From the NCBI GenBank assembly GCA_964016885.1, contig OZ024755.1, positions 36,766,001-36,830,000 on the forward strand: 64,000 bases of DNA. The letters run 5' to 3'. Source of the stretch: Eledone cirrhosa. Taxonomy: Eukaryota. A model generated the notes under the pieces. That model had not been told where the DNA came from. It did no database searches and saw only the letters and a program-made list of their open reading frames with translations. Positions 3,754-63,830 of this stretch are shown one piece after another (the first letter of the stretch is position 1; each line of letters starts with the position of its first letter). The translations under genes and the position numbers were made by a program.

Positions 3754-3789
3754 CTTTTGAAAAGCACAAGACTGCGAAACCGGTAAAGG
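3754..3789 (+). ncRNA. Hammerhead-like motif, U3-A8 core variant
   Basis: CTT TTGAAAA GCA..TGC GAAA CCGG TA AAG. Sister copies at 39092, 42661 and 52392. Confidence 0.55.
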
Positions 3790-3969
3790 AACCAAATAAA
3801 GATTTTTAAAAGGACTCCAGTTGCATTTTCGATTTCAACTTTTTCCTTATTCTTTCACTAGTGTAGGACGTCTCTTTTTTTTTATTTTGTAAAAAAACCC
3901 CATTTTCTTATATATATATATATGTAAAAGAAATCAAAGAACGCCTACATACTCATACAATTTTTATTT

Positions 3970-4014
3970 GCTGACAGTGTTTCATCCACACCATGGGGCA
4001 GGAATCATCAGAGC
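3970..4014 (-). ncRNA. Type I minimal hammerhead ribozyme
   Basis: Reverse complement: GCT CTGATGA TTCC..GGAT GAAA CACTG TC AGC. Stem I is GCT/AGC and the site is GUC. Same family as 58484-58528. Confidence 0.75.
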
Positions 4015-4794
4015 TTTATAAACAAAAATAAATGCTGAGTATAAGCTCTACCAAGCTTAGTCACACGAACATTATATATATATATATATATAAATACATA
4101 TGTGTATGAGTGTGTATGTGTGTGTGTATGTATGTATGTATTGTTCCGCCCGACAAGATATTCATAAATATACCCATGTGACATATACACTTATAATTCA
4201 AATGACGGGAGTGTGTAGGTCCCTGCATTGATAATTTCGTATAAAGGCATGACCTATCATATGACAATCAAATATCCAGATGTATATTTCTATTATCACT
4301 TATAATGTTTTCCGAATTAATATTTATTTTTCTTCAATTTTGCGACATTTCTATAATTATCATTCTATTTTTTTTCAATCAATTGTCATTTTATTCGATC
4401 CTCTCTGTAATTATATTGTTGAAAACGATATGAAGTTTATTTATATTGTGCTTTTGAAATTTAATGTAAGAGTAAGGTGAAATAAATATAAAAGACTGTG
4501 TCGTTCGAACTGATTGATAATCTTGGAGACAGTTATATAAACAATCGATGGAATATCGATAAAAATATATTGTTCCTTATAATTCTTTTTTCCTCATATC
4601 TAATTTGTAAATATGTAATTTCTAAATGATTAAATGTTATATATTCATATTTGATCGCAAACAGGTTTTCAATCTCTTTTCATTTGATGCTCATTCTCAG
4701 TGTATAAAAAATATTTAATTTGAACAATGGATTCTTGTTGTGACGGGAAGGATTTAAATTATGTTCAGATTGGGACATAAGGCATGGTTTAGTC

Positions 4795-5085
4795 CAGTCA
4801 TGGGAAACCTGCAGCCTGCGAAGCTTTCTGAATGGTTCACCTAAGTCACTTAAGTGAAATCTTTCTGATTCTTTTACCCCAACTTTTCAGTCGTAACTTA
4901 TCTTTCTATCACTTTTACGATCGAGGAAAACAACGTGTACGAATTCTAAAGAAACAAATCAAAACAACCTGAGTTACCGCCCTTTTTTTTAATGTGGGCA
5001 TGGATGTAAATTAGCGCTTGCGGCCCGCCTGATGATGAGCCATATCTCATGCGGCCCGCTTCTCGAAAAAGTTTGCTCATGCCTG
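4795..5085. mobile_element. hAT (Charlie-like) MITE
   Basis: TIRs cagtcatgggaaac/gtttgctcatgcctg and an imperfect 8-bp TSD gtttagtc/gtatagac. A second copy lies at 27722-28013. Confidence 0.75.
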
Positions 5086-5208
5086 GTATAGACCAATGCT
5101 GTTGTATCAGAAAGGCGTGAATATCCTAACTCACATTCTTAGGGTATTTAGGAGGACATAAAGTCTTCCTGATACGCTGTCAAATAAAATTATACACAGG
5201 TAAGGTCT

Positions 5209-5610
5209 TATAGCTATTGTTGAAGCTGTTTTTGTTTATCCCTCTATCAGATCTGACATTGTGTGTGATTTATTTCAGCTCAGAACACAGTCATGTAATC
5301 AGTGTATTTGATGCTCTGATTACGCTGACAATTCGCTACAGATCGAACCTTGAACTGATCAGTAGCGAAACGCGCGTCACCAACCAATAAAAGTAATGAA
5401 GGAGTAACGAACCGTCCTTGTATTGATTGGCAGTATCGGTAGAGGGTCGGACGCCATTCTTTGACGCATAGAGTTACGGCCCTTGCCATTCTGAGTCTAA
5501 AATCCCGCCGAGGTTAACTTTGCCTTTCATCCTTACGGGGTCGATAAATAAAGTACCAGTAATGCACTGGGTAATTGCTGGCCTTGTGCCAAAAGTAGAA
5601 ACAATTATTA
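5209..5610 (+). mobile_element. Composite repeat: pLTR-like segment plus SINE, duplicated at 11619-12020
   Basis: About 400 bp nearly identical to 11619-12020. It contains GTAGC GAAA CGCGCG TC..AATAAA followed by the SINE. Confidence 0.75.
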
Positions 5611-61500: not shown

Positions 61501-61599
61501 TTATAAATATGGTAATAAAAAAGGTTAAACCACTACAGGAACAGGAAATGTCCCTCTATTGACACCGCATATTTTCATCTATGATGTATTACCGGATAA

Positions 61600-61906
61600 A
61601 GTCCGCCTAACTTCGGCAGCTGGCTTCCGCCCCGTCTTCTGAGGATGGATCACTGCAATGCACAATGGCATCTGCTCGGTGGTTAAAGTTAATGGCCATC
61701 TTTCGGAACCGTTTCAGATCTCCCGATTGGTCCGTCATGGGTTCCCTCTCTCCCCCTTTCTGTACGCCTCGACACTCGAGCCTTTACTGCGAAAGATGGA
61801 GCTGTTGCAAGGCATCCCACTCAAATCGGGACGGGGAAAGATTGTGTCGGCATATGCGCAAGACATCACCGTGATGTTGTCGAACGCCTCGCAAATTGAG
61901 GTGGTC
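61600..61906 (+). mobile_element. Tx1/L1-clade RT fragment
   Basis: VKVNGHLSEPFQISRLVRHGFPLSPFLY..LEPLL..SAYAQDIT, related to 15300-15560. Confidence 0.85.
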
Positions 61907-63139
61907 GTGTGCGTGTGTGTGTGTGTGTGTGTGTGTGTGTGTGTGTGTGTGTGTGTGTGTGCGCGTGTGTGTGTGTGTGTGTGTGTGTGTGTGTGTGTGT
62001 GTGTGTGTGTGTGTGTGTGTATACACCCCATCATATATATATATTTACATTTTCTGCATTGCAACGTTGGCATTATTTTTGCCGTGACGCTATAGTAATC
62101 AATAAATATCTAAGTGATATCGCTACGTCTTAAATTTCTAATATAAGTTGCTAGACTGTAAATATGAAGATGGAGAGCTATACTAGATTAACTAGGCCTT
62201 GCCACATTTCTACGTGACAGCTCATTTGATCAAGAACTATACTAATTTGTCTGACTAAACATATATCATGTTATTTGCGTATAATATATTTCAGACATCG
62301 ACACACTCATGTTAGTAAGTAAGTAGTATATATACATATATATATATATATATATATATATATATATATATATATATATATATATATATATATATAAATA
62401 AGTTTATCCCGGGTTCAATCGGGGACAACCACAGTAAGTAAGGTACTCAATCCAAAGCAGAGTATAAATATTTAATATAGAAAATGCTTCTACAGGACTA
62501 GATGATTTCTCCCGAATGAAACAGTTCTAGTCCTGTAGAAGCCTTTTCTATATTAAATATAAATATAAATATATATATGATGGACTCTCCCGTCGATATC
62601 CGACGTATGAGTGTCCAACAAAAGTTGATGTGAAAAAGTGAACTTATGTTGAACTACCCACACAAAGTTTTGTTTTAAGTGGTGAAGGCTTGTGTAGGAC
62701 CAACCACACTTTTTGGGAACTGACGACACATATCTTCGGTGCAGATGTTTCCCACGGAAAATACAACGACATCTCTAAAAAAAAAACATATATATATAAA
62801 CTAAAAAAAATAAATAAAAACTATTTGGATGACCCCTATGCGGGGTCTTGTATTTCATCTCACCGAGTGTTCAAATATCACCCTCCTCACAAAGCAATAT
62901 ATACTTGGGGAGGGTCATATTGTTATAATATTGCCAGAAATAATAACAGAACACAGATTAAATATTTGCTCTACGGTTTTTATATATATTTTAGTCTTCA
63001 CATTTATATGACTATATAAATATATATATTGTTATACTTTGGGAGGGTCATGTTGCCAAATTCAGAAACGAAATATATATATATATATATATATATATAT
63101 ATATATATGTGTGTATGTGTGGGTGTGTGTGGGTGTGTG

Positions 63140-63262
63140 TATCCCGGGTTCAAACGGAGGTAACCACAGTAAGTAAGGTACCCAATAAATAGCAGAGTAA
63201 ACATTTAATATAGAAATAGCTTCTACAGGACTAGAACTGTTTCATTCGAAGGAAATCATCAG
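63140..63262 (-). mobile_element. HHR element (37783 family), truncated just 5' of the ribozyme core
   Basis: Reverse complement: CTGATGA TTTC CTTC GAAT GAAA CAG TTCTAGTC CTG TA GAAG. Confidence 0.7.
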
Positions 63263-63656
63263 GGCAGCAGAAACGAAGTCCCTCTTACACCAATGGTCAG
63301 CCAACACAGGCTGGAGATAGAAAGTGTAGCAACAAGGGCGGTGCCCCAGCATGGGCTCAACCGGATGGCAGGAACAGGTAAAAAAGAGAGTAATATATTT
63401 AATATCTAGAATCCCGATGTAACTAATAGGGTGTTGGTATATTCATTTTATTTTAGAAATGACACATATTTATTTCATAAGAAATTATAAGAGAAGCCGT
63501 AGCTGATCATTTCTCACAAATGAAAAAGTTCAAGTCCTGTAGAAGTTATTTCTATAAGAAAATGAATATATGTATAGTCCCTGCCATATATATATATATA
63601 TATATATATATATATATATATATATATATATATATATATATATATATATATATATA

Positions 63657-63830
63657 TGATATGTTGATTTAAAACTGCACTATTCACAAGTGTGTTTTAA
63701 CCTTCATATCATGTCTCCCTACTTTATCTGACGAAAACGCAAATGTTATTGCATGATGATATTTGTTTTTGAAATACGCATGATAAAATACATGGAACTC
63801 TTTTAACCATCTTTTGATCTTATATATTAT
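63657..63830 (+). mobile_element. HHR element (21433 family) with a mutated cleavage site
   Basis: TTTAT CTGACGA..GAAA TACGCA TG ATAAA, between (TA)n tracts. Confidence 0.7.

Follow-up and report, generated by a model that had tools for sequence, protein, structure and literature searches.

Islands between the TA runs of the window

The window is a 64 000-nucleotide (nt) stretch of the 3.0 Gb genome of the octopod Eledone cirrhosa (contig OZ024755.1, here C15, positions 36766001-36830000). It holds 154 TA runs (4,265 bp in total), and among these lie short islands that carry a type I hammerhead ribozyme (HHR) motif or part of one. An earlier note on this DNA had proposed that the islands are either stubs of the pseudo-long terminal repeats (pLTRs) of Penelope-like elements (PLEs) or retrozyme-like elements. 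Having followed copies of the families across the genome, we read them, with a probability of about 0.9, as mostly 5'-truncated 3' ends (pLTR and tail) of numerous autonomous PLEs that carry an endonuclease and are of the Hydra clade or of Neptune/Nematis type. The islands are as follows in window coordinates, the clade labels being putative; RT, ORF and UTR stand for reverse transcriptase, open reading frame and untranslated region.

3725-3908, plus strand: family F 3' end; U3:A8 HHR 3754-3788; parent has a Neptune-type endonuclease
3955-4033, minus: family N; HHR 3970-4014; no parent found
12030-12276, minus: pLTR stub of a family A subfamily; HHR 12167-12232; Hydra clade
12431-12665, minus: family D stub; HHR 12575-12639, homologous to the family A HHR; no ORF link
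21305-21720, minus: family B stub; HHR 21430-21502; rearranged inverted 5' copy; Hydra clade
21771-22199, plus: family A sense pLTR and tail; HHR 22004-22069; HHR of the inverted tail-less copy 21812-21877 (minus)
22853-23003, 43881-43936 and 44195-44249: further pieces of family L
24904-25290, minus: family K 3' end; A4-core HHR 24921-24971; Hydra clade
25346-25843, minus: family C pair; sense copy with tail, C4 core at 25597 (minus); inverted copy, core at 25766 (plus); Hydra clade
26259-26314, 29771-29840, 29946-30028 and 53378-53494: partial copies of family K
26370-26832, plus: family R; HHR core near 26586, read by eye; no parent found
27078-27330, minus: family O; minimal HHR 27165-27200; no parent found
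37783-38056, no strand assigned: family E head-to-head pair; HHR 37869-37915 (minus); no parent found
38445-38850, plus: family M; HHR 38698-38780; inverted tail; no parent found
38955-39732, minus: long family F stub with part of the 3' UTR, U3:A8 HHR 39092-39129 and tail; short inverted piece
41620-41861, minus: rearranged copy of family D
42280-42446, plus: family B stub; HHR 42341-42401
42522-42729, minus: family F stub
43085-43381, plus: family P2 stub; HHR 43153-43190
43494-43648, minus: relative of family C; HHR 43528-43574
44281-44465, minus: family L; 3' half of a U3:A8 HHR only, with an inverted piece
44650-44883, plus: family Q; HHR core near 44760, read by eye; no parent found
45137-45704, plus: family J; U3:A8 HHR 45383-45470; inverted 5' piece; no parent found
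45789-46178, minus: family A head-to-head pair; HHRs 45918-45983 (minus) and 46072-46137 (plus)
46230-46630, no strand assigned: family D head-to-head pair; HHR 46516-46581 (plus)
49440-49839, plus: family B head-to-head pair; HHRs 49481-49551 (minus) and 49641-49709 (plus)
49891-49989, 62402-62567 and 63136-63263: partial copies of family E
51138-51296, no strand assigned: family G head-to-head pair; HHR 51168-51213 (minus); no parent found
52355-52462, plus: family F stub; HHR 52392-52427
53771-54668, minus: broken fragment of a Neptune-type PLE RT-endonuclease; adjoins a family C relative
54666-54753, plus: relative of family C; HHR 54668-54720
56735-57024, plus: family H head-to-head pair; C4-core HHRs 56761-56832 (minus) and 56846-56919 (plus)
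57042-57705, no strand assigned: family I head-to-head pair; HHRs 57208-57292 (minus) and 57326-57410 (plus)
57706-58004, plus: family P stub; HHR 57770-57812
58400-58575, plus: family N; HHR 58484-58528
58954-59075: decayed relative of family O
60892-61200, minus: family T; U3:A8 HHR 61058-61101, outside the list in the earlier note; no parent found
63659-63827, plus: family B stub; G at the cleavage position, predicted inactive

Many islands contain just half a ribozyme; for family L the whole motif was read by eye in another locus (L168). The family A island at 21771-22199 has many genomic copies at 99-100% identity, and the family R island has a 99.6% identical copy in locus L004. Further partial or decayed HHR-like islands lie at 44919-45114, 49330-49400 and 63893-63915. 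A separate repeat (2321-2402, 5205-5420 and 11615-11830) has a GAAA, a palindrome and a UC half-motif and is twice fused to the common short interspersed element (SINE) of the window; no 5' core was found.

Hammerhead motifs and their fold

Motifs were sought with type I HHR descriptors (core CUGANGA / GAAA / UH or a 3:8-paired variant, three helices, stem I open), which were loosened after inspection of the data to admit long stems II, an extra base after A9 and 3:8 core variants; every shuffle control was run under rules identical to those of its descriptor. The first and strictest gave nine matches in the window (0.15 in shuffled sequence), and its two short-stem-II versions gave none in the window or in the shuffles, because many stems II are long. 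A second descriptor gave 16 matches at a score of ≥9 (0.03 shuffled). At a score of ≥8 there are 32 matches, a strong enrichment over the 1.25 per shuffle obtained from 20 local dinucleotide shuffles with the microsatellites kept and all eight core classes summed. All 21 positions that the earlier note had cited as hammerheads are type I motifs: 19 by descriptor (the third descriptor matched 18 within 75 nt and earlier ones caught 25761) and two, 26581 and 44753, missed by the descriptors and read by eye. For ten of these positions, and for the start of the note at 3754, the left edge of the computed motif is the exact coordinate. By our own grouping the window holds 19 families with a complete motif, in line with the more than a dozen that had been estimated.

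The 292 matches in ∼0.9 Mb of fetched DNA, much of it family-selected, form 56 clusters, a few of them spurious or split; we put the number of sequence clusters at about 50. Positions 3 and 8 pair in 54 of the 56 cluster representatives (45 C:G and nine U:A, one of the latter from a spurious satellite match). Stem III is perfectly palindromic in 28 of the 56, and many motifs carry a longer stem III than minimal HHRs. The conserved CUGANGA core claimed in the earlier note is not always present: F, J, T and L have a paired U3:A8 core, position 4 is C in families C and H, and it is A in family K. An A4-core reading of family F was rejected; the bases concerned differ among copies and the U3:A8 reading yields full stems. 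Stems II reach about 110 nt. The family of the island at 44919-45114 has a stem II of ∼110 nt in its complete motif (L150 and L018).

Covariation was tested on sequence-only alignments of families A and D (19 sequences) and of P and P2 (eight sequences). In A/D 97.6% of the cells pair and seven of the nine stem II pairs change on both sides; in P/P2 this holds for four of the 12 pairs, in stems I and II. The covariation score was reached by none of 500 shuffles and by no slid control in either alignment; stem III is invariant in both. Two-strand folding gave a double-hammerhead geometry for F and J, and nearly so for B. If the motifs self-cleave, the predicted cut is 3' of UH.

That the motifs are chance patterns in AT-rich palindromic repeats has in its favour four spurious U3:A8-class matches within one AT-rich satellite (L153). 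An Rfam scan of the window returned no hammerhead family among the best 150 of 277 matches, those listed being chance matches of microRNA type only, and the folding of the islands as HHRs, which had been claimed outright, is borne out by descriptor but not by free energy, as only two of 14 monomers reach z ≤ -2 relative to shuffles. The excess of matches in the window and in a 400 kb genomic sample (56 versus 1.7), the covarying stems, the 3:8 pairing and the fixed position of the motif at PLE 3' ends all speak against such an origin, to which we give practically no weight; at the level of the motif these sequence comparisons already refute it.

Parent elements and insertion into (TA)n

Upstream extension, through copies elsewhere in the genome, physically links eight of the 19 window families to PLE ORFs of the RT/GIY-YIG type: five of the Hydra clade (A, B, C, H and K) and three of Neptune/Nematis type (F, P and P2). 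The pLTR-stub half of the earlier proposal is thereby upheld for these eight, while its retrozyme-like half fits at most family I among the window families. For family A, the 40 scored genomic candidates have 98-100% identity. The copies have a common fixed 3' end at (TA)n and vary in 5' length; an inverted copy lacking the last ∼90 nt is often present, and longer copies cross a UTR of ∼1.4 kb into the upstream endonuclease ORF. A piece of this ORF had 76,972 first-look candidates in the genome, and all 138 that were scored are 98-100% identical. The full ORF encodes 737 amino acids (aa) and lies in units of 3.9-4.0 kb, sometimes in tandem, where the HHR is 189 nt upstream of the ATG; several copies keep open frames of 738-755 aa. 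The protein model has a pLDDT (predicted local distance difference test score) of 89.8 and its top two Foldseek matches, 3du5 and 6zdq, are telomerase RTs; the RT has a YRDD motif. The family A parent is an intact, young element of 4.0 kb with, as modelled, a telomerase-like RT.

All the Hydra-clade motifs given by Craig et al. (RxRW[RK], DKT, CxCx5C, CxxC and CxH) are present in the family A ORF, which lacks CCHH, as does that clade; the closest named homologues of the protein come from Argonauta hians. Its C-terminal GIY-YIG endonuclease was assigned by motifs and a by-eye match to the alignments in the supplement of PMC8557442. Subsets of the Hydra motifs are present in the available fragments of B, C, H and K, the ORFs of which have about 35-47% protein identity to family A; several distinct Hydra lineages are found here, with 35-60% identity to one another. 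The link of family H was made by eye in one locus (L147), where a matching tail precedes the start of a Hydra ORF. By their motifs and a resemblance seen by eye to the Hydra rows of the same supplement, families A, B, C, H and K probably belong to this clade. An assignment to Naiad was ruled out: Naiad has an N-terminal endonuclease and no canonical HHR, whereas in all linked parents the endonuclease is C-terminal and HHRs are present. A near-complete Hydra ORF of another family (L119:6452-9911) is preceded by a U3:A8-core HHR, so that in this genome Hydra and Neptune-type elements alike have such a core.

Family F lies ∼1.4-1.8 kb downstream of a Neptune-type endonuclease in seven loci; a Hydra endonuclease upstream of family F in L175 was rejected as a link, TA and another HHR family lying in between. 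For family P, locus L195 carries a complete pLTR-ORF-pLTR-TA copy whose open frame spans 1239 aa, and for P2 a related endonuclease, the only part of the ORF seen, lies 331-354 nt upstream in L120 and L130. The family P ORF has a long Asn/Thr-rich low-complexity insert, and many copies keep frames of >1,000 aa. Translations of F and P show a CX2-5CxxC linker and a CCHH-type C-terminal endonuclease, from which F, P and P2 are placed, provisionally, as Neptune/Nematis type. One Neptune-type endonuclease (L132) is above the Pfam cut-off for GIY-YIG; the window fragment at 53771-54668 is below it (E = 0.0025) and by eye resembles the Neptune rows of the PMC8557442 supplement. This fragment and the adjoining family C relative (53771-54753) are head-to-head, with no TA run between them.

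(TA)n is found ≤300 nt downstream of all 31 window motifs, compared with 34% of random positions; a 32nd match, with an A3:U8 core at 19628, was judged to be chance and discarded. The association extends genome-wide in the sample: 47 of 56 motifs have (TA)n downstream, compared with 17% of random positions and with 18 of 56 on the upstream side. The earlier note had the 3' end of the ribozyme strand running into (TA)n; TA is indeed downstream, but it is the end of the element and not the ribozyme that meets it. The TA run begins 14-290 nt past the predicted cut site, and tail ends adjoin TA in 13/16 (A), 24/26 (B), 10/13 (C) and 16/17 (F) cases. Of the 74 pairs of same-family neighbours, 61 lie head-to-head, 12 are direct and one is tail-to-tail. 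The tail-less end of family C often has a variable-length (CT)n before the TA run (25820-25856 and 54753-54832; L089-L116), as if slippage had extended the terminal bases. The observations comprise 3' ends fixed at (TA)n, 5' truncation to a variable extent, inverted 5' copies, ORF linkage, tandem full-length units and covarying stems.

From the PLE literature, the GIY-YIG nuclease of the element would nick (TA)n DNA and the RT would prime at the nick with its own RNA as template, immediately downstream of the HHR. The RT would usually stop early, often with an inversion, and since the HHR lies within ∼300 nt of the 3' end most insertions would leave an HHR or half of one. New inserts would bring flanking TA runs, so that the elements pile up as nests. 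Selection would keep the HHR in active master elements, the stubs being mostly passive copies. Our best guess is that the HHR, either dimeric or assisted by protein, trims tandem read-through transcripts. The HHR of an anole PLE needed the protein for cleavage, and the tail of that element is defined by two internal sites where reverse transcription begins (PMC11167929). Individual stubs could instead be ribozymes co-opted by the host to process its own transcripts, and their high copy number would make intronic and UTR positions common. Copies are, however, often mutated or broken off within the core (family L; 63659-63827), and master elements account for the conservation, which makes co-option very improbable.

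Several results weigh against reading the islands as PLE ends that carry working ribozymes, beyond the Rfam and free-energy results given above. No ORF link was found for 11 of the 19 window families (D, E, G, I, J, M, N, O, Q, R and T). DNA searches with the F and L 3' ends gave no candidates, which is uninformative because the search skips very common words. The family A ORF gave nothing significant when searched against Pfam and PDB sequences, and in Pfam GIY-YIG is weak in four of 58 aligned homologues. Stems I and III of A/D show no two-sided pair change; the count of two-sided pairs was matched by 51/500 (A/D) and 22/500 (P/P2) shuffles, and related sequences inflate the covariation controls too. 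In two-strand folding, A and C do not take a hammerhead-like form. The anole HHR is dispensable for insertion in vitro and no RNA-seq ends were reported at its cut site in PMC11167929. Family I elsewhere in the genome forms a permuted non-coding unit of 536-543 bp in two of five fetched loci (L185 and L187).

The window also contains a ∼600 bp repeat of 93-96% identity that likewise ends at TA runs (1524-2089, 23628-24247 and 55070-55684) and gave no HHR match with the descriptors used. There are ∼20 copies of a SINE that we take to be tRNA-derived, untied to TA runs (5421-5615, 6801-7284, 28118-28326, 30533-31764 and others). Presumed fragments of long interspersed elements (LINEs) and of a Tc1/mariner-like transposase lie at 71-463, 14822-15241, 15240-16830, 17908-19361, 32857-36290 and 31900-32500. 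A 200-base assembly gap (N) occupies 37305-37504.

Retrozyme-like units, genomic scale and known systems

Non-coding tandem HHR monomers are absent for the eight coding-linked families, partial for family I and present for a ∼558 bp family outside the window. The latter forms tandem arrays of up to 15 listed units (C4:68366286-68374569); the units are 97-99% identical, have no open frame of >61 codons and show head-to-head inversions (L177-L182), and by sequence this appears to be a young retrozyme-like family with a PLE signature. A tandem HHR unit of 412 bp that carries an inverted 5' copy (L174 and L151) looks similar and may be a second such family; the retrozyme option thus also fits two families outside the window. 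Most window families could be non-autonomous non-LTR (long terminal repeat) retrozymes, tandem HHR monomers of 150-600 nt with circular RNAs that borrow the PLE machinery, and the two arrays and the permuted family I unit show that candidates exist in this genome. We consider this unlikely: eight of 19 families reach ORFs, the window has no same-strand, same-family HHR pair within 6 kb, and the ∼558 bp family has no match in the window. At L187:2159-2500 family I sequence is joined to a family P ORF at a short shared word. This ORF was rejected as the parent of I; as it belongs to family P, the junction would be a chimera or a template switch, and suggests a switch between PLE-related RNAs.

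Density was estimated from forty evenly spaced 10 kb stretches (400 kb) of contigs C1-C9, the smaller chromosomes lying outside the sample. Discarding the four satellite matches as chance from the 56 (1.7 in three shuffles) leaves 52, or one per 7.7 kb and 3.9 × 10^5 genome-wide (bootstrap 2.2-5.8 × 10^5); with a mirrored block and a tandem core collapsed, 47 remain, or 3.5 × 10^5 (2.1-5.1 × 10^5). These figures count motifs and not insertions, and miss decayed copies. The mirrored block (L127:972-4519), with three HHR families, is a large inverted duplication or an assembly artefact. The earlier note had put the density at one HHR per 2-3 kb, which holds locally (∼1 per 2 kb in the window, counting both members of inverted pairs) but not for the sample (∼1 per 8 kb). 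The highest published count compared is 126,247 HHR motifs, in axolotl (PMC7229834), so that the 2-6 × 10^5 estimated here looks new in scale; metazoan PLE HHRs were reported at about 2,000-9,000 per genome (PMC4209133). No genome-wide HHR census in octopods was found in the literature covered, subscription papers and Repbase/Dfam entries lying outside it, and the main text of a recent Octopus repeat annotation (PMC13282606) gave no hit in a term search for 'ribozyme' or 'Hydra'.

Hydra PLEs with HHRs in (TA)n and the U3:A8 core are known biology, and the elements here are new members of known PLE clades with ribozymes of known types, which stand out by their number, diversity and recent activity; Hydra-1_Obim of Octopus bimaculoides is already on record as targeting (TA)n and carrying an HHR (Craig et al., 2021; PMC8557442). 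In common with Hydra-1_Obim and Penelope-n_HM, as described there, are the single RT plus C-terminal GIY-YIG-type ORF, the RWK-like, DKT and CxCx5C motifs without CCHH, the 3' HHR, the (TA)n target and the inverted 5' copies. Differences are the length of the family A unit (4.0 kb, compared with generally <3 kb), owing to its 3' UTR of ∼1.4 kb, the several distinct lineages within one genome and the HHRs themselves: those in the supplementary table of that paper are all CUGANGA, whereas C4, A4 and U3:A8 cores and stems II of up to about 110 nt occur here. Families F and P have the linker and endonuclease type of Neptune/Nematis PLEs, for which PMC8557442 proposes a microsatellite bias (Neptune); family P differs in its insert-bearing 1239-aa frame, its clade being placed by motifs. 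The minimal type I HHRs of metazoan PLEs (Cervera and De la Pena, 2014; PMC4209133) likewise have a palindromic stem III, an extra base after A9, a long stem II, many families per genome, head-to-head pairs and a U3-A8 variant (Schistosoma Cercyon). Metazoan non-LTR retrozymes (PMC7229834; bioRxiv 10.64898/2026.07.22.740005) are non-coding tandem HHR monomers of a few hundred bases; such monomers also occur here and family I may be one, but most linked window families are ends of coding elements, and the arrays show PLE-type 5' inversions and TA-flanked ends in the loci inspected.

We think it somewhat more probable than the converse that this genome is the richest in HHR motifs among the published counts compared (2-6 × 10^5, ∼1 per 8 kb, >40 families), that this stems from unusually diverse, still-active TA-targeting PLEs with repeated switches to U3:A8, C4 and A4 cores, and that the same machinery mobilizes non-coding retrozyme-like tandem units bearing the PLE inversion signature. 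A large class of short repeats in an octopod genome is explained as PLE ends, which suggests that much of the (TA)n DNA that looks 'low-complexity' consists of nested retroelements. A young Hydra-clade element that is intact and has a defined target offers a substrate for studying microsatellite choice by PLEs and the HHR's role, and ribozyme biochemistry gains a resource in the dozens of HHR families that covary naturally and include core variants. If the estimated number of motifs and the shared machinery hold true, the genome would be a natural library of ribozyme variants and would give direct structural support for retrozymes as non-autonomous partners of PLEs.

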